A stretch of 64,000 bases of DNA. Source: an uncultured Bacillales bacterium (GTDB taxonomy: Bacteria > Bacillota_I > Bacilli_A > RF39 > UBA660). A program made the position numbers and the translations under genes. Below, piece after piece: positions 15,838 through 26,639 of this stretch. Below the pieces are notes generated by a model. That model was not told the origin of the DNA. It saw only the letters and a program-made list of their open reading frames with translations, and ran no database searches. Each line of letters begins with the position of its first letter. Within the stretch, counting starts at the first letter, position 1. The stretch spans positions 3,858 through 67,857 of the forward strand of contig CAMKGA010000004.1 of assembly GCA_946412015.1 (NCBI GenBank). Direction: 5' to 3'.

Positions 15838-15926
15838 GCCTGAGTGGCGAAATTGGTAGACGCACAGGACTTAAAATCCTGCGGGAGTCAAATCCCGTGC
15901 CGGTTCAAGTCCGGCCTTAGGCACCA
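15838..15926 (+). tRNA. tRNA-Leu (anticodon TAA)
   Basis: Cloverleaf with long variable arm, anticodon loop cttaaaa, acceptor gcctgag/cttaggc, 3' CCA encoded. Confidence 0.85.
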
Positions 15927-15933
15927 TTATATT

Positions 15934-16024
15934 GGAGAAATACCCAAGTCTGGTTGAAGGGACTGGTCTTGAAAACCAGCAGGTCGGAAACGGCGCGGGG
16001 GTTCGAATCCCTCTTTCTCCGCCA
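15934..16024 (+). tRNA. tRNA-Ser (anticodon TGA)
   Basis: Long variable arm, anticodon loop cttgaaa, T-loop gttcgaatc, CCA end. Confidence 0.85.
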
Positions 16025-16039
16025 CTAATATTTTAATAT

Positions 16040-16116
<77 letters not shown>

Positions 16117-16121
16117 ATAAT

Positions 16122-16197
16122 GGTCCCGTGGTGTAGCGGTTATCACGTCTGCCTGTCACGCAGAAGATCGCGAGTTCGATTCTCGTCGGGACCGCCA
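16122..16197 (+). tRNA. tRNA-Asp (anticodon GTC)
   Basis: tgcctgtcacgcag anticodon arm is identical to Firmicute tRNA-Asp; CCA end. Confidence 0.8.
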
Positions 16198-16207
16198 TTA
16201 TTTTTTT

Positions 16208-16283
16208 GGCTCTATAGCTCAGTCGGTAGAGCACAGGACTGAAAATCCTGGTGTCGGTGGTTCAATTCCACCTGGAGCCACCA
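16208..16283 (+). tRNA. tRNA-Phe (anticodon GAA)
   Basis: Anticodon loop ctgaaaa, gctcagtcggtagagc D-arm, CCA end. Confidence 0.85.
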
Positions 16284-16296
16284 TAGAAATAATATA

Positions 16297-16314
16297 GCTG
16301 GCATGCCAGCTTTT
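16297..16314 (+). terminator. intra-array hairpin terminator after tRNA-Phe
   Basis: Perfect palindrome agctggcatgccagct followed by tttt. Confidence 0.45.
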
Positions 16315-16377
16315 AAAAAAGACAAATATTGACTTATTTTAAAAAAAGTGATAACATTAATGATGTCTCGGGGATAC

Positions 16378-16454
16378 GCGCTCGTAGCTCAGCTGGATAG
16401 AGTGTTTGGCTACGAACCAAAAGGTCAGGGGTTCGAATCCCTTCGAGCGCACCA
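16378..16454 (+). tRNA. tRNA-Arg (anticodon ACG)
   Basis: Acceptor gcgctcg/cgagcgc, anticodon loop ctacgaa, CCA end. Confidence 0.85.
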
Positions 16455-16460
16455 TATTAT

Positions 16461-16537
16461 CGGGAAATGGCTCAACTTGGTAGAGCACTTGGTTTGGGAC
16501 CAAGGGGTTGCAGGTTCAAATCCTGTTTTCCCGACCA
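16461..16537 (+). tRNA. tRNA-Pro (anticodon TGG)
   Basis: Acceptor cgggaaa/tttcccg, anticodon loop tttggga, CCA end. Its 3' end is the attachment site of the adjacent island. Confidence 0.85.
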
Positions 16538-16572
16538 TTAAGTTTATAAATCCTTGTATTGCAAGGATTTTA
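16521..16572 (+). repeat. attL: 3' end of tRNA-Pro plus downstream hairpin, direct repeat of 22863..22915
   Basis: tcctgttttcccgaccattaagtttataaatccttgtattgcaaggatttt recurs with about 5 mismatches at 22863..22915. It includes the terminator-like hairpin aatccttg-tatt-gcaaggatt. Confidence 0.65.
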
Positions 16573-16612
16573 TAATAATTTGATATTCATAACCCTTATA
16601 AAACACTTAAAA

Positions 16613-17701
16613 TTATTTGTTTTGTTTCATTTGATTCAAGATGTTGACCGCTTTATCTTCATCTTTAGGAATCATATGAGAATAGGTATTGAGTGTCATA
16701 TTGATATCTGAATGTCCTAAACGTTCGGAAATAACTGTTATAGGGACATTCATTGATAAAAGTAAGGATGCATGACTATGTCTGAAGTCGTGTATTCTTA
16801 TTTTTTTGACCTTAGCTATATCACAATACTTATTCTTCTTTCTACCAATTGTTGATGGTGCTAATGGATTTAATCCACCAAATATAAACCAATTATCATT
16901 GAAATCTACACATTGTTGATAATATTTCTTTAAAAGATTAAGTTTATTAATTAATTCATTATCTAGTTTTACTTTTCTGATACTTTGACTAGTTTTAGGT
17001 GTATTAATAATATGTTTGTTATCAACCATTTCTTTAGAGATAGTTTTATTTATGTCTAAATATCCATCTTTAAAATCATTCCAGTTAAGAGCTAGTGCTT
17101 CACCTTGCCTTAATCCAGTATAGTATAGTGTTTCAAATAAGAATTTATATACTAAATCATCAACACATTTAATAAACTTTTGATATTCTTCTATTGTCCA
17201 AAAATCAACATTTTTAACTAACTCTGTTTTTCTTTTGAAATTACCAGTTAGTGTGGCTACATTTGTTTTTAGTCCATAAAACCTAATAGCATAATTTAAG
17301 ATATTAACCATTGCTCCATGCAAACTAGAATTGTATTTATGTTTAAAACCTTTTTTCTCAATTTCAATTTGCCATTTTAAATAAACACTATTAGTTATTT
17401 TATTAAGTTTATAGTTTTCAAAATATGGTAGTATATGATTTTTAAATCTACTCTCAACTGATCTATATGATTGAGTCTTTAATCTTAATTCTTTATAATT
17501 AGCATATTCTTTCCATAAATCATTAAAAGTCATATTAGAGAAATTAAACTTATCTCCCATTTTAAAATCATATTCAGCTTGTTGAGCTTCCTTTTTGGTA
17601 TTAAATCCTTTTCTCTCAAACTGTTTTCTATTTCCATATACATCATCACAATAGGTTCTAAACTTCCATTTCTTTGTTCTCTTATCTTGATATACCGGCA
17701 T
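16613..17701 (-). CDS. int: tyrosine-type site-specific integrase
   Basis: 362 aa; C-terminal catalytic region ...HDFRHSHASLLL...LGHSDINMTLNTYSHM carries the R-H-R-Y box residues; immediately adjacent to the tRNA. Confidence 0.9.
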   Translation of the reverse strand: MPVYQDKRTKKWKFRTYCDDVYGNRKQFERKGFNTKKEAQQAEYDFKMGDKFNFSNMTFNDLWKEYANYKELRLKTQSYRSVESRFKNHILPYFENYKLNKITNSVYLKWQIEIEKKGFKHKYNSSLHGAMVNILNYAIRFYGLKTNVATLTGNFKRKTELVKNVDFWTIEEYQKFIKCVDDLVYKFLFETLYYTGLRQGEALALNWNDFKDGYLDINKTISKEMVDNKHIINTPKTSQSIRKVKLDNELINKLNLLKKYYQQCVDFNDNWFIFGGLNPLAPSTIGRKKNKYCDIAKVKKIRIHDFRHSHASLLLSMNVPITVISERLGHSDINMTLNTYSHMIPKDEDKAVNILNQMKQNK

Positions 17702-18609: not shown

Positions 18610-18993
18610 TCGTTATAATAATTAAATGATTATTTTTTTTGTGGGCACTTTTCCCTAAATTATTCAAAAATTACATAAAAAAGCACTGTATTTTTTTAAT
18701 GAGCATAAGATGTTCGCCACCCATTTTCGAGTTCCCACTTATAAATCAAAGGAAAAACTGGGTGGCATTTCTATTTTTGCATTTGCAAAAATGCCGACAT
18801 TTTTAAGGAAAAGTGTCCACTCATTATCAAAAACACCATATATATCAACGAATTTAATGCCTACTAATTTAGTGACAAGTACCGGCAATAGTTAAAATGG
18901 TGTTAAAAAAGTGCTTCCTATAATTTTTTTGAATTGATATAAATATGTTGACAATGATAGTTATTTTTTTATATAATAAATTACCAAGAAAGA

Positions 18994-20883
18994 ATGATTT
19001 GGATGAAAAAATTATTAGAATTAAATGAATTATTAAAGAATTATTTAGATATTGACTTTATATACTGTAATAATGAAATTGCAAAAAAAATAAACAATAG
19101 GATAAAAAAACAATTTACTGTAAGCATGAATTTAGAAGATTTAACAAATAAAGTTTATAAACAAAAAGTAAATTTTGAACCTATTAAAAAAAATACTAGT
19201 GATAGTACGCAAGCTGTATCTGCAAATATTAAAGAATTATTTAAAGAAAAAATTTCCAATCCTGATTTAGTATTGTCTTTAGAAAATTTGGGGTATTCAT
19301 ATGAAACAATAAGTTATTATATTGAGACAGAAGAAGAAAAAATGGAATTAGGAATATATAATGAACCTGTCATCAAATTATCTAATATGATAAGCAAAGC
19401 TCATTTTTTAACTCTTTTAGAGAATATGACAAAAAAAGAAATTGATTTTTCAAAATTAGAATATTTAACTTGGGAAGAAGTTGCACCAGCTTTAAATAGA
19501 GAGGGATATGCTAGCACTTGTAAATGTCATAATCCAAATATTTTTAAGAATATTCAATCAATAGATGGAACAATTTTATGTAAGTATTTAGATTTTACTA
19601 ACTATCAGGGCTATAAATCTGACGATTTTTTTCCAAAAAATATTTATGTTACGATTAATCCTTTAGAATACTTTTATGAAAAATTAAGTCTTTCGGAGAA
19701 ATTAATTTTATTTAATGAATCTTGTACAAATGATATTAAACAATCTATCCCTGAACTAATTGATGAAAATCAAATAATAGAACAGATACTATTAATAATA
19801 AAAGATGAAATTGTAAAAAAAGTGTCTAAATATATAGATTTGATAGACAATAAATATATTAAAGGTAGTGAAAATGGAGTCACTAAATTTGATTTAGATA
19901 TTAATAAATCTCTTGATTTTCATTATATTAATCACTTATCTGAAATATATAAATTAGATGTACCTGAATTCACAATAGAAAGTTTGAAGATATTTAAAAA
20001 TAATATATTGGAGATTGAAAATAATAATTTAAAACATTTTATCAAAAAGCGAGAATTAATTGAAACTGAAAAATTTAAAATTGAAATAAAAAACAAAAAA
20101 AATCAGCTTTGTTTTAAAAAAAATAAATCAGCATTTTTAGAAAAAATAATAGAATTTGAAAGATTATTTGAAAATGGAGAAATTTGTGATCCTGATTGGT
20201 ATTTGGAAGATACAACATATAGATCAATAGAAGTTGAGCACTTAACAACATATATAGATAACATAATATATTGTCTAAAAGCTTTTCTTAATGATGATAC
20301 AGAAACGCTGAAAGAAAATCAATTTAATCTTGAATTTGTTAGTGATAATCTAGATTATATTGAAAGAATGTGTAACGAATATATGAGTTATGACCCCCAA
20401 AAGTTTTATGTTGGGAACATTGACAATTTTTATGAATATGGCAAATGGGATAAGTTGCCTTATCAAGAAATAAAATTAATTATTAAATATATTAAAAGCG
20501 AAATGCCTTTTCTTAATGATTATAAAAATGGTCTGTATTCTAATGATACAACTAAAACTCTAGATGAACAAGAAGATAATTGTAATACAAATATTTACAA
20601 TATTGAACGAAAGATCAATTATGACATAGAACAAAATATAAGATTTATTTGTGATGAAATAGAAAAGAATTCTAATATTTATGATGCTTTAACAAATATA
20701 ATTGGTTTACTAGATACTATTAATAAGCCTAATATATTTAATGAAACTATAATTGAACAATTATATGAATTATTGAAAGTGTATGGAATGTTAAGTAATA
20801 GAAAAATTTCTGTTGAATGCGGTATTAATAAGGGACAAAAAGAATCAATACAAAAAGTCTTGATGATAAAAGATAATAAATAA
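18994..20883 (+). CDS. hypothetical 629-aa island cargo protein, no recognisable domain
   Basis: Long ORF with its own TTGACA-N18-TATAAT promoter (18949..18978), located just upstream of Abi_2 inside the island. Confidence 0.3.
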   Translation: MIWMKKLLELNELLKNYLDIDFIYCNNEIAKKINNRIKKQFTVSMNLEDLTNKVYKQKVNFEPIKKNTSDSTQAVSANIKELFKEKISNPDLVLSLENLGYSYETISYYIETEEEKMELGIYNEPVIKLSNMISKAHFLTLLENMTKKEIDFSKLEYLTWEEVAPALNREGYASTCKCHNPNIFKNIQSIDGTILCKYLDFTNYQGYKSDDFFPKNIYVTINPLEYFYEKLSLSEKLILFNESCTNDIKQSIPELIDENQIIEQILLIIKDEIVKKVSKYIDLIDNKYIKGSENGVTKFDLDINKSLDFHYINHLSEIYKLDVPEFTIESLKIFKNNILEIENNNLKHFIKKRELIETEKFKIEIKNKKNQLCFKKNKSAFLEKIIEFERLFENGEICDPDWYLEDTTYRSIEVEHLTTYIDNIIYCLKAFLNDDTETLKENQFNLEFVSDNLDYIERMCNEYMSYDPQKFYVGNIDNFYEYGKWDKLPYQEIKLIIKYIKSEMPFLNDYKNGLYSNDTTKTLDEQEDNCNTNIYNIERKINYDIEQNIRFICDEIEKNSNIYDALTNIIGLLDTINKPNIFNETIIEQLYELLKVYGMLSNRKISVECGINKGQKESIQKVLMIKDNK

Positions 20884-20946
20884 AATCTATAATTTATGGA
20901 GACTAGATTTATTGTATCATTTCTTAAAAATTTTTTGAAAAATGAT

Positions 20947-20974
20947 TTGACATTTGGTCAAAATAGTGTATAAT
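20947..20974 (+). promoter_or_regulatory. sigma-A-like promoter of Abi_2 gene
   Basis: TTGACA at 20947-52, 16-nt spacer, TATAAT at 20969-74. Confidence 0.45.
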
Positions 20975-20981
20975 TATATTT

Positions 20982-21020
20982 AATTGGTACTCAGGAAACT
21001 TTCGAAGCCCTGAGTCAATT
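20982..21020 (+). repeat. 39-bp element with internal 6-7 bp hairpin, upstream copy flanking Abi_2
   Basis: aattggtactcaggaaactttcgaagccctgagtcaatt; near-identical copy at 21936..21974. Confidence 0.6.
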
Positions 21021-21040
21021 TTATATATGGGGGCATAAAA

Positions 21041-21907
21041 ATGAAGGAATATAAAAGCAATGAAGAATTATTAGAATATTTAATATCTAAAGGTGTTAGT
21101 GTTAAAAATAAGAAAGTAGCTTTAGATAAAATAGAAAGATATACGTATTATTGTATTGTAAACACTTATAAAGAAGTATTTAAAGAAGATAATAAGTATA
21201 TTGATGATGTTACATTTGAAGAAATATATGCCCTATATGATTTTGATAAGAGTTTAAAGAATATATTTTTAAAATATATATTGGAAATAGAACAAGTTGT
21301 TAAAGCTCTTATAGCTAATACTGTATCAGAGAAATATGGCATTAAAGATTATTTAACATATAATTGTTTCAATCAAAAAATAAATCAAGATGTTATAGAT
21401 GAAATGATATTAAAAATAGATGATGAAATAAGTAAAAACTATGGTAAACATGCTGCAATAACACATTATAAAGATACATATGGTTTTATCCCGCCTTTTG
21501 TATTAGTTAAAATAATGACAATAGGACAGATAAGTAGATATTATGGAATATTAAAACAAGAAGATAGACAAAAGGTTAGTAAATATTTTAAAATATCTGA
21601 TAAATTACTAAAACAAATACTTCTAAATATTACTTTAGTTCGTAATTTCTGTGCTCACAATAATAGATTATATACATTTCATAGTAAATTCTTTATTAGT
21701 TTTAAATCAATAGATACATCATATAATAGTGCTAATAAAACAACTAATCTTTATATGATTATGAAATGTATGGAATTGTTATTAGATAAAAAAAGGAAGA
21801 AACAATTTATAAATCAAATTAATAAAGAAATAAATAAATTAGATAAAAAGTTAAATGTTATAGATATAAGAATTATTTTAAAGATTATGGGTTTCCCATG
21901 TGAATAA
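21041..21907 (+). CDS. Abi_2 family abortive-infection protein (AbiD/AbiF-like)
   Basis: 288 aa; the N-terminal region matches the Abi_2 family pattern (...EELLEYLISKGVSV...YCIVNTYKEVF...); second paralog at 36545..37468. Confidence 0.7.
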   Translation: MKEYKSNEELLEYLISKGVSVKNKKVALDKIERYTYYCIVNTYKEVFKEDNKYIDDVTFEEIYALYDFDKSLKNIFLKYILEIEQVVKALIANTVSEKYGIKDYLTYNCFNQKINQDVIDEMILKIDDEISKNYGKHAAITHYKDTYGFIPPFVLVKIMTIGQISRYYGILKQEDRQKVSKYFKISDKLLKQILLNITLVRNFCAHNNRLYTFHSKFFISFKSIDTSYNSANKTTNLYMIMKCMELLLDKKRKKQFINQINKEINKLDKKLNVIDIRIILKIMGFPCE

Positions 21908-21935
21908 TTATTTATAATTTGAATATAATAATAGT

Positions 21936-21974
21936 AATTGGTATTTAGGAAACTTTTGAAGCCCTAAGTCAATT
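21936..21974 (+). repeat. 39-bp element, downstream copy flanking Abi_2
   Basis: aattggtatttaggaaacttttgaagccctaagtcaatt; 35/39 identical to 20982..21020 with a compensatory pair change in the stem (ctcagg/cctgag to tttagg/cctaag). Confidence 0.6.
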
Positions 21975-22057
21975 ATTCCTTAATTTTCTAATATGAAAAT
22001 TAAGGTTTTTTTAGAATTTAAAAAGAAGAAACGAATTCTTCTTATAATAAGCATATG

Positions 22058-22723
22058 CTAATATTCTAAATCAATATCTTGATTAATTAATTCTAAATTA
22101 TTGTAAATAGAATGTTTAAAATAACTATATTGATTTTCGATTACCTTACCATATTCATCCAATTTATTATTTAATTTATAATGTCTAATAATATAATTAA
22201 TTACTGTTATTATTTGTGTATAATTATATTCTTTTAATAACTCAGTAAATATATTATCATAATTTGTTAAATTAATATCAGTATCTTTTATAAAGCCTTT
22301 TCTAACTAATTCTAATGTTAAACTATGGTGAATAGTTTTATCTATTTTATCTTTGTTATTATTGCTTTGTATATTAGTATTTAGTAGTGATTTGTTATCG
22401 GTACACCCTTTATCCGTGAACCCTTTAGGGTATTGTGGTGTTTCATAAATATCATATTGATAATTGATTCTACCTTTTTCATCATGTGTTTTTTCTCTTA
22501 TTAAATAACAATTATCTTCTAATTCTTTTAATGTTGATTGTATAGCTTTCTTTCCTTCTTTGCACATTCCAACTAATCCATTAACAGAATATATCCAATC
22601 ATCAGGTAAACTTAACATCATTGATAGTAATCCTTTAGTCTTTAATGATAATTTTTTATCTCTTAAATGATAGTTAGACATCACTGTATAGTTCTTTGTT
22701 TTATTAATTCTAAATACTGCCAT
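22058..22723 (-). CDS. replication-initiator-like HTH protein (RepA_N / DnaD-like N-terminal domain)
   Basis: N-terminus MSNYHLRDKKLSLKTKGLLSMMLSLPDDW...LKELEDNCYL resembles Firmicute plasmid/PICI replication-initiator N-terminal domains. Confidence 0.4.
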   Translation of the reverse strand: MAVFRINKTKNYTVMSNYHLRDKKLSLKTKGLLSMMLSLPDDWIYSVNGLVGMCKEGKKAIQSTLKELEDNCYLIREKTHDEKGRINYQYDIYETPQYPKGFTDKGCTDNKSLLNTNIQSNNNKDKIDKTIHHSLTLELVRKGFIKDTDINLTNYDNIFTELLKEYNYTQIITVINYIIRHYKLNNKLDEYGKVIENQYSYFKHSIYNNLELINQDIDLEY

Positions 22724-23005: not shown

Positions 23006-23128
23006 GTTACTGATACTAGAATTATAATAAATAATGTGATAAAATTATTTTGTAAAATAAAACAGTACAGTTTTGTTTTATAATTTCTCTTTTATTCAAA
23101 TTTTTATTTTGAAAGGATGGTAGATTTT

Positions 23129-24175
23129 ATGAATAAGAATAAAAGAAAAGGATTCACATTAATAGAACTAATAGCAGTTCTAGTAATACTAGCAATTCTT
23201 GCATTAATAGTAACACCACTAGTTATGAATATTATAAGAAAAGCTAGAATTTCAGCGGATAAAAGAAGTATTGATGCATACGGAAGAAGTGTTGAGTATG
23301 CAATAGCTACATATTTACTAGATAACGGAAAGTTCCCAACAAGTATAGAAGAGCTAACGATAGAATATACAGGAGATGAAGTAGTATGTTCAACATCTAA
23401 GCTTAATTCTGATTCTTCAGTATATCTAGCTGGATGTACTGTAGCAGGAAGAAGTGTAGATTATACATATGGTAGTGAAGAGTCTATCGTATATGATGTA
23501 TATCAAAAAGGAGATACAGTAACATATAATGGAATGAATTTCCACGTAATAAAAGATAGTGGAACAAGTCAAGATTATGTTACATTATTATTAGATACTC
23601 CGTTGACTGCAACTGAGGTTAATACATATGGAGGAGTAGGAACAGCAAATAACCATGTAAATATGCATGTAACTTCTAATACAAATGCATCATATTACCA
23701 AAAAGCATATGATTATAATAGTGCAGGCTATTTAGCATTCTACTCAAGTGAAACTTGTGGATATGATAGTAATAACAATTGGGTAACTACTGGATGTAAT
23801 AATAATTATGCAGATAGTGATATAAAATATGTAGTAGATGCTTGGGCGTTAGATAAAACAACCTCAAGTGATTTAAAAGAAATAGATGGATATAAAGCAA
23901 GAATGATAACATATGATGAATTAACAGATGAGCTAGGATATGAAAAAGCATCAAGTGGAACAATAATGCCATCAAGTAATGGTGATACACCAAACTGGGT
24001 ATGGAATTCAGGAAATAACGCTGGATATTGGACAATGAGTGGGGTAGCAGATAGCACTGACCGTGCCTGGTATGTTATTGGTGATGGCGGGCTTAACAAC
24101 AACAACGTGCGCTACGGCAACTACAGCTACGGGTCTGTTCGCCCAGTTATAAATCTCTTGAAATCTGCCATCTAG
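23129..24175 (+). CDS. type IV pilin/pseudopilin-like protein with large C-terminal domain
   Basis: N-terminal prepilin signal KRKGFTLIELIAVLVILAILALIV (G/FTLIE methylation motif). The C-terminal ~90 aa share a motif block with two modules of the 1906-aa protein (…YW…G…VRPVI…). Confidence 0.65.
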   Translation: MNKNKRKGFTLIELIAVLVILAILALIVTPLVMNIIRKARISADKRSIDAYGRSVEYAIATYLLDNGKFPTSIEELTIEYTGDEVVCSTSKLNSDSSVYLAGCTVAGRSVDYTYGSEESIVYDVYQKGDTVTYNGMNFHVIKDSGTSQDYVTLLLDTPLTATEVNTYGGVGTANNHVNMHVTSNTNASYYQKAYDYNSAGYLAFYSSETCGYDSNNNWVTTGCNNNYADSDIKYVVDAWALDKTTSSDLKEIDGYKARMITYDELTDELGYEKASSGTIMPSSNGDTPNWVWNSGNNAGYWTMSGVADSTDRAWYVIGDGGLNNNNVRYGNYSYGSVRPVINLLKSAI

Positions 24176-24362
24176 GTTATCAAGAAGGTCTCGTGCTAGG
24201 AATAAACTAGATTTAAACAAGTACAATATTTAGAACAATATGAAATGCAATAATTTGGAAACAAATTATTGTAAAAGGCAGCTTGTCTGCCGTAGCTTCA
24301 CGTCTGCGTAGCGAAAGTGAAGCTTATAAATATATATTTTAATGGATAAAGAGAAATTATGA

Positions 24363-24396
24363 AACCCAGTAATATTTAAATTACTGGGTTTTGTTT
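24363..24396 (+). terminator. rho-independent terminator after pilin gene
   Basis: Hairpin aacccagtaat-atttaa-attactgggtt followed by ttgtttt. Confidence 0.55.
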
Positions 24397-24404
24397 TATA
24401 TTGT

Positions 24405-24428
24405 GTAATATAGAGGTAGTTACTGATA
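24405..24428 (+). promoter_or_regulatory. conserved 24-bp motif gtaatatagaggtagttactgata (copy 2)
   Basis: Paired with 22982..23005. Confidence 0.4.
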
Positions 24429-24554
24429 TATATAAGGTATTCCAAAAAAGTATACCCTATATAAATTTTTATTATTAAAATTATTATTAATAATTATTTA
24501 CAATTTTTATCTTGCTGTGATATACTATTGTTGTATAGGATAGTGAGGTATAGT

Positions 24555-24767
24555 ATGAACAAAAGAATTATTGAAGATGTAAATATTAAATGTGAAAAGT
24601 GTGGTAGAGATATTGGCTTTAAGGTATATTATGAGTCAAGTAATGAAACAGGAGAGAATAAATATAAAAAGTCTAATTTAGATGATGTAGAGGTATGCTC
24701 TTGTAGTGGTGCATATAAGCAGTATGTTAGTAAATATAATGATCTGCCTGCATTAATTACAAGATAG
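24555..24767 (+). CDS. small hypothetical protein with CxxC...CxC cysteines (zinc-ribbon-like)
   Basis: 70-aa ORF, RBS gtgagg; CEKCGR ... CSCSG. Confidence 0.3.
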   Translation: MNKRIIEDVNIKCEKCGRDIGFKVYYESSNETGENKYKKSNLDDVEVCSCSGAYKQYVSKYNDLPALITR

Positions 24768-24768
24768 A

Positions 24769-25263
24769 TTATTTAAATATTGTAAGTTTTTTTATAGGAT
24801 TATCTTTAATTTTTCTTTTTGAAAGATAATCTTTTTTTATGTTTGAAATGTTATATAGTTTATTTATTGAATTTGTTATTTTTATTTTTGTATCTTCATC
24901 TATATTATTTTTATTATATAAATATTTTTTTATAATTGTTGGATTTACTCCTGTTATTTTTTTGCACATTTCTGAAAAATATTCTAACGAATTAAAACCA
25001 CTTATTAGTGCGATATTTAACATATTGTTATTGCTTGTTTCTATAGATTTAATTGTGTTATATATTTTAAGTGAATTAATATAATCTGTAATCGTTAAAC
25101 CTATTTCTTTTTTAAATAATTTCATTATGTAATATCTATTATAATAAAATTTTTCTTCTAATGTTTGAATAGATATTTTATGTTTTAAATTATCATTTAT
25201 ATAAATTAAAATGTTACAAATAAGTTCATTTGAAAACATATTATCACCAATTATAATATACAT
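24769..25263 (-). CDS. AraC-family HTH domain protein
   Basis: The C-terminal half has AraC-type HTH features (…YFSEMCKKITGVNPTIIKKY). Confidence 0.5.
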   Translation of the reverse strand: MYIIIGDNMFSNELICNILIYINDNLKHKISIQTLEEKFYYNRYYIMKLFKKEIGLTITDYINSLKIYNTIKSIETSNNNMLNIALISGFNSLEYFSEMCKKITGVNPTIIKKYLYNKNNIDEDTKIKITNSINKLYNISNIKKDYLSKRKIKDNPIKKLTIFK

Positions 25264-25349
25264 TATATATTTGTTAGAGTCAATATACCACTATTGTTTA
25301 AATGTAATATTAATATCTAGTATATACTGAGTGTGAAAGGAGAGATAAT

Positions 25350-26639
25350 ATGTTAGAATCACATTTTGAAACTACAGAAAATATGAAAAAGTATGTACCA
25401 TTAATACCGGTTAACAAGAATTCTAAAATTAATAATTCAGGTGTTTATATGTGCTATGATGATGAGAATATTTATATTGATAAAAAGTTTAACAATAATT
25501 TAATTATTGGAGAGGGTGGAAGTGGTAAGACACAAGCAGTAACTTTGCCATTATTAAAAACATCACTTTTAGCAACCGAATCTGTAATTGTAACTGATTT
25601 AGGTGGTGATATATATAAAAATATGCATGACGAGTTTGAGAAGAATGGTTATACTAATTTAGTTTTAAACTTTGATAATCCACGTAATGGGGATAGGTGG
25701 AACCCATTTTCTTTAATTACTAAATTATATAAAAATAAAGATTATGATCTAGCGCAAGAAGCAATTGAAAATTTAGGATTTTCTTTAATTAGAGAAAGAA
25801 CAGATAATACTAATGATCCGTTTTGGGAAAATTCTGCTGTAAACTTTTTTTCGGGACTTGTATTATATGCGCTTGAAAATAATATTGATTTAACTTTTGA
25901 TGCGTTACAAGATATAGAAAATAAGATTGATGAAAATAGTAGTGAATTTATTAATTCTTTAGATAAAAAAGATCCGTCATATATAAATTTAGTTGGAATA
26001 TTAAATGCACCAAATGAAACAAGAGGAAGTATTATTTCTGTATTTAATCAGAAAATTAAATCGTTTTTTAGTAAAATAGATTTAAAAAATATGTTATCAG
26101 ATGCCAATTTTGATTATGATAAATTATTAAATAGCAAAACTATTGTTTATTTAATACCAGGAGTAACTACAGTATCTGAAAGATTAATATCACTTTTTGT
26201 AAGTCAATTTGCGTATGTAAAAAGGATTTTTAAAAGCACACTTAAATACAATATTATATTAGATGATTTTTATAATATGAATTATATAAAAAATATTGTA
26301 AATATTATTAATAATTCAAAATCTTTTGGAATGAAGTTTACTATTACAGTAGGTGGTTTTAATGAGATTAATAATATATATGGTAAGGAACAAGCAAATT
26401 TATTAAAGGCATGTTTTAATAATATTATATATTTATTATCATCTGATATTGAAACACTTGAAGAAGTTAGTAAGATGTGTGGTAGTAAAAGTAGCGATGG
26501 TAAAATGTTGCCGCTAGTATCGGTATCTGAGTTAAAAACATTAAAAATGTTTGAAGCAATTATTTTAGCTCAAAGAGTTATGCCTTATAAAACTAAGTTA
26601 TGTCCATATTATAAATTAACTGAAAATGGTATATTTTAA
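25350..26639 (+). CDS. type IV secretion coupling protein (TraG/VirD4/TcpA-like) ATPase domain, N-terminally truncated relative to canonical T4CPs
   Basis: Walker A IIGEGGSGKTQ, the NP..GDRWNPF block, and Walker B/ATPase C-region NIILDDFYNM...GMKFTITVGGFNEINNIYG all match the T4CP soluble domain. No N-terminal TM segments, 429 aa. Confidence 0.55.
   Translation: MLESHFETTENMKKYVPLIPVNKNSKINNSGVYMCYDDENIYIDKKFNNNLIIGEGGSGKTQAVTLPLLKTSLLATESVIVTDLGGDIYKNMHDEFEKNGYTNLVLNFDNPRNGDRWNPFSLITKLYKNKDYDLAQEAIENLGFSLIRERTDNTNDPFWENSAVNFFSGLVLYALENNIDLTFDALQDIENKIDENSSEFINSLDKKDPSYINLVGILNAPNETRGSIISVFNQKIKSFFSKIDLKNMLSDANFDYDKLLNSKTIVYLIPGVTTVSERLISLFVSQFAYVKRIFKSTLKYNIILDDFYNMNYIKNIVNIINNSKSFGMKFTITVGGFNEINNIYGKEQANLLKACFNNIIYLLSSDIETLEEVSKMCGSKSSDGKMLPLVSVSELKTLKMFEAIILAQRVMPYKTKLCPYYKLTENGIF

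Follow-up and report, generated by a model that had tools for sequence, protein, structure and literature searches.

A hairpin RNA found on both sides of an Abi_2 gene, probably a cis-encoded antitoxin of an AbiD/AbiF-type module

The two direct repeats that bracket the Abi_2 gene of the window (the whole stretch of DNA analysed, 64,000 nucleotides from an uncultured Bacillales bacterium) are probably copies of a structured RNA belonging to an AbiD/AbiF abortive-infection module, and the comparative analysis points to a cis-encoded, type III-like antitoxin as the most likely role of this RNA. The AbiD/F (Abi_2) proteins are among the most abundant anti-phage families and have been proposed as the ancestor of Cas13; to our knowledge, their RNA partner has been characterised for a single class, RF03085, always located upstream of the gene. 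The hairpin described here appears, from its sequence and its fold, to be distinct from RF03085, an RNA class of its own that Zilberzwige-Tal et al. (Cell 2025) may already cover. It would add a second AbiD/F-linked RNA class, one whose structure is well supported and for which a covariance model is already available. The layout is different as well: each end of the mRNA carries a copy, and in other loci the hairpin forms small-RNA genes that stand alone or in tandem, a range that bears on the origins of repeat arrays. The hairpins also have a use in annotation, flagging a two-component system that is otherwise called a lone 'Abi-like protein'.

The repeat search of the window returned a direct repeat of 40 nt (20981-21020 and 21935-21974; 36/40 identical, spacing 954 nt), and a degenerate 39-mer allowing up to three mismatches found two sites in the whole 64 kb, both of them these repeats, and none in 100 dinucleotide shuffles. 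The 39-bp direct repeats reported in the initial annotation (20982-21020 and 21936-21974) are therefore real, and their reported placement, in the promoter-proximal 5' UTR and at the 3' end of Abi_2, was correct: the first copy starts about 7 nt past the -10 box and the second 28 nt past the stop codon. The covariance model R1, built from 115 distinct hairpins, scored the 5' copy at 69.4 bits (E 4e-16) and the 3' copy at 64.9 bits (E 7e-15), the next-best match in the window reaching 12.5 bits. The four differences between the copies are all transitions: C20990 to T21944, whose partner G is constant (a C-G pair becoming a U.G wobble); C20992 to T21946 together with its partner G21012 to A21966 (C-G becoming U-A, a true compensatory pair); and C21003 to T21957, the sole variable position of the loop. 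The initial annotation had seen in the stem substitutions a preservation of pairing; this stands for one compensatory pair and one wobble, and since the window holds no more than these two, its evidence taken alone is weaker than had been implied.

The same bulged hairpin is predicted on the + strand for both copies. In the 5' copy (20980..21024) the minimum free energy fold agrees with the proposed structure, which consists of an outer stem (20982-20986/21016-21020), a GU bulge (20987-20988), an inner stem of 7 bp (20989-20995/21009-21015) and an invariant apical region, AAACUUUCGAAGC (20996-21008). The 3' copy (21934..21978, core 21936-21974) carries the stem variant UUUAGG/CCUAAG, and its minus-strand fold is no better than that of shuffled sequence. 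The stability of the hairpin is ordinary (z = 0 for the leader, z = -1.3 for the 3' copy), so the case for an RNA structure rests on covariation.

Both copies lie between a sigma-70 promoter (20947..20974; TTGACA, 16-nt spacer, TATAAT; 12/12 match to the consensus) and an intrinsic terminator detected by the terminator scan and the fold (21978..22012, hairpin 21978-22005; 11-bp stem, 6-nt loop, T7) which closes the unit; they thus belong to one transcription unit, all of it on the + strand, with the repeats at its two ends. The predicted transcription start, judged from the position of the promoter, falls at ~20981-20983, on the first bases of copy 1. Right after the 5' hairpin there is a U-rich tract (21019..21028), which its T content and the analogy with RCd22 (PMC12373285) suggest to be a leaky terminator or attenuator; the terminator scan made no call at the 5' hairpin and U-tract. 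The ribosome-binding site, GGGGG (21029..21033), is left free by the hairpin in the leader fold, and the gene (21041..21907, 288 aa) starts with an ATG 17 nt from the end of the 5' copy. Six nucleotides ahead of the 3' copy there is a -10-like TATAAT box (21924..21929), conserved in the 3' flanks of the homologues, possibly a weak independent promoter or the remnant of one. The 3' copy abuts the terminator hairpin, and this terminator is kept with the module in other genomic contexts.

The 288-aa protein matched Pfam Abi_2 (PF07751; E 8.8e-41, 140.7 bits against a cut-off of 25.6), the AbiD model of PADLOC (E 3.3e-54) and, with phmmer against the PDB, chain 8vz6_A (E 3.6e-14). Its HEPN motif, R201-N-x-x-A-H206, aligned with the TRNSCCH of 8vz6, and R201, N202, A205 and H206 are invariant in the homologue alignments. 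The AlphaFold2 model (pLDDT 88.6) had a sole Foldseek match at E <= 0.001, again 8vz6_A (TM 0.77, E 3e-10), a PDB entry corresponding to the PbAbiF dimer bound to its ncRNA. On these matches the protein is assigned as an HEPN toxin of the AbiD/AbiF type, with toxicity and RNase activity as predicted properties.

Homologous loci provide the evidence that the window alone could not. In all the close homologues (93-63% protein identity, found by exact-protein look-up) the block formed by promoter, 5' hairpin, ribosome-binding site, gene, 3' hairpin and terminator is present, and the neighbours of the module are unrelated from one homologue to another (rpsD; Fic..ftsA/ftsZ; truB..IS66). A further 80 loci were picked by protein homology, one genome per species (53-79% identity); nearly all come from AT-rich gut MAGs labelled Bacilli, Clostridia or Tenericutes. 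R1 detected at least one hairpin in 79/80 of these loci; in L104 none was found within 1.5 kb of the gene. The matches in the 80 loci numbered 161, every one of them on the strand of the gene, and of the 78 loci in which both flanks were covered, 74 showed the bracket layout, one copy on each side of the gene, the 5' copy ~45-55 nt ahead of the ATG and the 3' copy ~25 nt past the stop codon.

In the gapless alignment of the 115 distinct hairpins, the proposed pairs were filled in 94.5% of the cells, compared with at most 52% when the partners were slid, and double-sided changes occurred at 10/15 pairs; four pairs of the inner stem swap among GC, AU, UA and CG with zero unpaired cells. G-U pairs, valid on the + strand only and A-C mismatches on the other, are frequent in the stem. 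Almost no variation is seen in the apical AAACUUUNGAAGC, in the GU bulge on the 5' side or in the closing GUC, even as protein identity falls to 53%; the loop reads GGAAACUUNCGAAGCCC. Covarying stems together with near-invariant unpaired nucleotides argue for a sense-strand RNA recognised sequence-specifically at those nucleotides, and selection on the hairpin as an RNA, not as a DNA site, is strongly supported by the alignment. The selection on structure proposed in the initial annotation was thus confirmed by the comparative data, and folding and covariation analysis, the check put forward with it, gave the same bulged hairpin in both copies and strong stem covariation in the 115 hairpins; of the two forms that had been offered for the structure, RNA hairpin or palindromic protein site, the covariation, the G-U pairs and the strand bias (161/161) uphold the first and not the second.

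The two positions of the hairpin differ in their transcription signals. The promoters ahead of the 5' copies match the consensus at a mean of 10.5/12 positions (78 distinct loci), and the 8 nt after the hairpin contain a mean of 6.7 T for the 5' copies versus 2.8 for the 3' copies, which are followed by a separate terminator. Ahead of the 3' copies (73 distinct 3' flanks) TATAAT is conserved at fixed spacing (mean 5.6/6), with a poor -35 (3.0/6) that overlaps the end of the gene. A 3'-type stem stays 3'-type in orthologues and the 5' and 3' copies are distinct across clades, with occasional gene conversion in which the 3' copy has turned 5'-like (L003, L076, L140).

More distant relatives extend this layout. 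In a gut phage locus (L013/L021/L036; 31% protein identity) hairpin and terminator occur on both sides of the gene, the loop being the same and the stem different (CUACGG/CCGUAG). Locus L091 (62% identity) has five hairpin units, each formed by a TTGACA-17-TATAAT promoter, the hairpin and its own terminator, one of them upstream and four downstream of the gene as a tandem array with a 145-nt period, and its abi gene has a separate promoter of its own. These relatives, with clear terminators after the hairpin in L013 and L091, present it as a predicted small-RNA gene in its own right. A Cas13-like CRISPR array was discarded as an explanation: in the window the 'spacer' is the gene itself, and in L091 the sequence between repeats is a conserved promoter plus terminator with the 145-nt period. 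Locus L172, with two hairpins 2.2 kb apart, was considered as a case of 'other cargo' and also rejected, the hairpins being duplicated longer small-RNA units on the opposite strand to the intervening Fic and UDG genes.

At the gathering threshold Rfam identified tRNAs only over the whole window; with no Rfam match to the hairpin when the locus was scanned at E <= 10, it is not a curated family. RF03085 gave no cmscan match at E <= 10 in window positions 20900-22060 or in L001, L003 and L009, while its positive controls were recovered (phiC2, 37.6 bits; 7/9 PbAbiF-like loci, 47.8-58.4 bits; gathering threshold 37 bits). The PbAbiF-like loci have one RF03085 copy, upstream of the gene, and no further copy downstream; R1 found no match in them or in the C. 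difficile loci. RF03085 (Weinberg et al. 2017; abiF is not mentioned in the main text) resembles the window hairpin in being short (~37-45 nt), in having conserved unpaired nucleotides and in adjoining Abi_2 genes, and the 5' copy of the window shares its position immediately upstream of the gene. The RF03085 consensus (CCCGCCAAGCC..GCUCAAAUCGGCGGG), however, has a 3'-side internal loop, whereas the window hairpin is bulged on its 5' side (GU), with an AAA internal loop on that side too and CUU-UNG-AAG at the tip; RF03085 loci have no counterpart of the second, 3' copy. Homology between the two RNAs is unproven.

AbiD/F systems are now viewed as two-component, an HEPN toxin plus a short upstream RNA (PMC13064643). 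The neutralisation of PbAbiF by a cis-encoded hairpin RNA is credited to Zilberzwige-Tal et al. (Cell 2025) by PMC12373285, PMC12737573 and PMC13064643, and, according to PMC12737573, the PbAbiF HEPN dimer (8vz6) binds one hairpin ncRNA per monomer, the unpaired bases of which block the HEPN site. No structure other than this PbAbiF-AbiFr complex matched the window protein, but the PbAbiF-like loci have no downstream motif and no R1 match. In C. difficile phi027, RCd22 carries two tandem RF03085 motifs upstream of abiF; its transcripts mostly stop at a terminator ahead of abiF, the excess of RNA being produced by premature termination, and it binds and neutralises the AbiF dimer in cis as well as in trans (PMC12373285, Saunier et al. 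2025). The window module shares with RCd22/AbiF the Abi_2/HEPN toxin, a sigma-A promoter, a hairpin at the transcription start and two motifs per module, a number which in RCd22 matches the protein dimer; compensatory stem changes are tolerated in RCd22 as well. The two systems differ in arrangement, RCd22 having both motifs in tandem upstream plus a strong terminator and the window one copy upstream and one downstream of the gene, and also in RNA sequence and architecture; the proteins are ~29% identical.

The reading of the repeats as a cis-encoded antitoxin draws on several further observations. Among bacterial genomes the element is confined to this Abi_2 clade; that the RNA class tracks the protein clade is as expected for a specific RNA-protein pair. 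Repetition of the RNA units in cis with a protein RNase toxin, a type III trait, was found as two units per module in 74/78 loci and five in L091, and promoter and hairpin persist after the loss of the toxin, at empty sites and next to pseudogenes. According to the mechanism that we propose, transcription would begin at the 5' hairpin from the consensus promoter; the hairpin and U-tract would stop many transcripts early, yielding a surplus of free hairpin RNA, and read-through past them would yield the toxin mRNA. That mRNA would carry the second hairpin just ahead of the terminator, a hairpin perhaps also made from its own weak promoter. Each monomer of the AbiD dimer would bind one hairpin, with the invariant apical nucleotides and the GU bulge as contacts, the HEPN site being thereby blocked, and phage infection or loss of the RNA would free the RNase. 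In this scheme we infer the binding of the hairpin, the antitoxin activity, the 5' attenuation and the 3' promoter activity from the comparison with the characterised systems.

ToxIN/AbiQ type III modules are alike in combining an RNase toxin with repeated cis RNA units, to which the tandem array of L091 is similar, in that their RNA excess is set by termination, and in that phages counter them by RNA mimicry (pseudo-ToxI; PMC3475682). The fold of ToxN/AbiQ is different, and in ToxI, units of 36 nt adjoin one another upstream of the gene and are processed from one precursor by the toxin; unlike these, the window units are hairpins which bracket the gene or (L091) have their own promoter and terminator.

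Recombination between the repeats is a real feature of these loci. A metagenome search with the hairpin itself returned 21 loci, among them intact modules, abi pseudogenes still accompanied by promoter and hairpin (L170, L173, L179, L185), solo units (L175, promoter-hairpin-terminator) and two independent empty sites. At the first empty site (L174/L176/L184/L189) the flanks are shared with L006-8 and the abi gene is missing, its place being taken by a single hybrid hairpin that has the promoter and a 5'-type stem on one side and the 3'-type flank with the terminator on the other; at the second, L183 relates to L182 in the same manner. From the hybrid hairpins it follows that the toxin gene is deleted when the repeats recombine, a promoter-hairpin-terminator gene being left behind, and we consider this comparison of occupied and empty sites decisive for deletion of the toxin gene with retention of the putative antidote. 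We know of no other safe way in which a toxin-antitoxin pair can be lost. These sites are genomic evidence of repeats mediating toxin loss with the (putative) antitoxin retained, and an orphan antitoxin left in this way, if it is one, might shield against re-addiction.

The initial annotation had gone further, proposing a recombination-mobilised defence cassette, and the search which it suggested, for the repeat in other genomes and for cassette-less variants, did recover intact modules and the two gene-less sites; a search for variants of the island through its 629-aa upstream neighbour found no relatives in the metagenomes. Recombination between the copies is upheld by these two sites, but the repeats do not behave as the boundaries of the unit or as a mobilising mechanism: the DNA common to the window and to modules in other contexts runs from ~20919-20964 to ~21971-22013, promoter and terminator included, so the repeats are not the junctions of a mobile unit. 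That they serve chiefly for excision and insertion of Abi, with solo hairpins as landing pads for example, is in our estimate unlikely. It would account for the two independent occupied/empty pairs with the crossover within the repeat, the many genomic contexts, the gene conversion in L003, L076 and L140, and the solo promoter-hairpin-terminator units as potential targets (L175, L183, L091). Against it, the junctions lie outside the repeats, as promoter and terminator travel too; an invariant loop with variable stems is the contrary of what attC-type sites show; transcription signals accompany each copy; the distinctness of 5' and 3' copies across clades shows exchange to be rare; no dedicated recombinase accompanies the module; and deletion alone was observed, never insertion. 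Recombination as a consequence of the repeats fits these data; as their purpose it is not supported.

Integron attC sites, which like the window repeats are imperfect palindromes with bulged bases next to a gene and allow gene loss by repeat recombination, were also considered. Integron cassettes are arrayed at attI, whereas modules of the window type are single and scattered in diverse contexts; there is no IntI (the integrase of the island has an Arm-binding domain and is of the phage type), and the module has its own consensus promoter. An invariant hairpin centre with variable stems is, furthermore, the reverse of attC, with its R/L boxes and variable centre, and transcription signals surround each copy. 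An attC/integron origin was rejected on these grounds.

Against the antitoxin reading, the hairpins might be a cis-regulatory RNA sensor that answers to a phage factor by steering abi transcription read-through, mRNA decay or translation, with neither binding nor neutralisation of the protein; we judge this improbable too. A 5' copy in the leader followed by a U-tract would suit such a sensor, as would the precedents of abiD1, regulated through its mRNA with phage Orf1 activating translation (Bidnenko 2009, as reported in PMC13064643), and of RCd22, which likewise works in cis by termination (PMC12373285). Control through the leader, however, hardly explains the 3' copy, the ribosome-binding site is not sequestered, and the hairpin is kept once the toxin is gone. 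The stand-alone hairpin genes, of which L091 has as many as five, each equipped with a promoter and a terminator, fit a trans-acting RNA and not a cis sensor.

Copies of the hairpin were also found in phages. The strict hairpin pattern had no match in viral contigs; the loop-only pattern gave 60 loci in IMG/VR, among which R1 had 21 matches at E <= 0.1. Since the loop was fixed by the search pattern, the stems alone are independent evidence: ~20 loci have at least five further stem pairs, against ~1% by chance, and represent ~7 lineages with different stems. An Abi_2 neighbour is present in the L013-type lineage only. The remaining copies are orphans located 4 nt past a phage tRNA-Thr (L048), within an eight-tRNA array (L027/L056/L073), 24 nt past a tRNA-His (L037/L070), past a gene for a major tail protein, with a T-run (L025 group) and past an anti-repressor gene (L060). 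Phage PhiTE escapes ToxIN by RNA mimicry with pseudo-ToxI (PMC3475682), and a lytic cyanophage has been reported to carry an RF03085 RNA (PMC9964418); by analogy, it is plausible that the orphan hairpins are anti-defence decoys against AbiD/F. They provide a directly testable hypothesis of RNA-based anti-defence, which if true would be the first RNA decoy against an HEPN/AbiF system and an analogue of pseudo-ToxI. The broader proposition that the hairpin is a second class of AbiD/F antitoxin RNA, that the phage orphans mimic it and that the bracket provides an inbuilt way of losing the toxin safely is offered tentatively, as possible but on balance doubtful. The Abi-less orphans also mean that the hairpin may have another or wider role besides that of Abi partner.

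It is very unlikely that the hairpins have no specific partner and act as generic stabilisers of mRNA ends, or represent a duplicated hairpin akin to a terminator. A copy at each end of the mRNA occupies the classic positions for protection from exonucleases, 5' and 3', and some phage orphans are at expected terminator spots, such as that past the major tail gene with its T-run; but the 13 apical nucleotides and the GU bulge remain near-invariant despite divergence of stem and protein, as in sequence-specific recognition, the element is limited in bacterial genomes to this Abi_2 clade, and the true terminator is a separate one after the 3' copy. A tRNA-like or anticodon-mimic loop was discarded, as neither ARAGORN nor Rfam reported anything at the hairpin.

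A palindromic DNA operator for the XRE-type or HTH_36 regulator of the island, to which an inverted repeat placed just past the -10 box, where a repressor could plausibly sit, and the nearby HTH genes might point, is scarcely credible given the G-U pairs that become A-C mismatches on the opposite strand, the minus-strand fold of the 3' copy, the 161/161 matches in the gene's orientation, the homologous modules lacking XRE or HTH_36 neighbours, the promoter and terminator of each L091 copy and the lack of an obvious role for a copy past the gene. The surroundings of the module in the window comprise a tRNA cluster, a tyrosine integrase, XRE and HTH_36 genes, a pilin-like gene and a T4SS coupling protein, and look like an integrative, probably conjugative, island.

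The hairpin that brackets Abi_2 can outlast the gene. The abi gene was deleted in the comparison loci L174 (5626-5670), L183 (4787-4831) and, on the minus strand, L176 (2693-2737), L184 (841-885) and L189 (161-205), where the chromosomal flanks match those of the occupied loci L006-8 and L182 and one hybrid promoter-hairpin-terminator unit is left. Judged from these sequences, the gene was lost from the empty sites via crossover within the hairpin repeats. At L170, L173, L179 and L185 the hairpin is followed by residues 1-66 of abi only; the promoter and 5' hairpin are intact despite the decay of the gene to this short N-terminal remnant, a state consistent with loss of the toxin and retention of the putative antitoxin. 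The 5' and 3' hairpin copies remain distinct in most clades, the exceptions being a few loci; the 5'-type stem sequence is present in the 3' copy at L003 (1489-1539), L076 (2395-2439) and L140 (2395-2439), which suggests occasional gene conversion between both copies.

In L091, a homologous locus with two tandem abi genes, the hairpin type forms free-standing small-RNA genes (1217-1310 and 2424-2984), each unit with a consensus promoter and a terminator; a single unit is found upstream of abi, and the other four are arranged downstream as a 145-nt tandem array. This array-like state may have a bearing on the evolution of repeat arrays from AbiF-type systems. L172 carries a hairpin pair on the minus strand (330-374 and 2566-2610) spaced 2.2 kb apart, with a similar extension of approximately 90 nt and then a terminator behind each copy; Fic and UDG-family genes lie between them on the opposite strand, and the Abi gene is absent. 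The L172 hairpins appear to be a duplicated, longer version of the small RNA. Among the 80 homologous loci, L104 (1501-2358) is the sole case in which the hairpin was not found at a distance of up to 1.5 kb. This locus is a member of the L091-type subclade, in which abi carries a promoter of its own together with a distinct leader hairpin; the RNA may be encoded at another place in the L104 genome.

Orphan hairpin copies were also observed in phage contigs, at loci from which the Abi_2 gene is absent: L025 (4291-4335), L027 (209-237), L056 (4516-4544), L060 (8827-8855), L070 (4473-4497) and, on the minus strand, L037 (8307-8331) and L048 (2443-2487). Their loop is identical, their stems differ and covary, and they are positioned within or directly 3' of phage tRNA arrays, 3' of a major tail protein gene or 3' of an anti-repressor gene. 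These copies are candidate antitoxin mimics, that is, anti-AbiD decoys.

In the window, the XRE gene is separated from the Abi module by a 629-aa ORF (18994-20883), predicted to be driven by a second perfect consensus promoter preceding it (TTGACA, 18-nt spacer, TATAAT; 18948-18977). The ORF had no match in Pfam or PADLOC, and scanning metagenomes returned no relatives; it may represent an island or defence gene that is still uncharacterised. The stretch 15838-17701 holds seven clustered tRNA genes and, after them, the gene of a tyrosine integrase that has an Arm-binding domain. Further along, 23117-26639 encodes a pilin-like N_methyl protein, an AraC regulator and a T4SS coupling protein. The Abi module appears to lie within an integrative element inserted next to these tRNA genes, and this element is probably conjugative.
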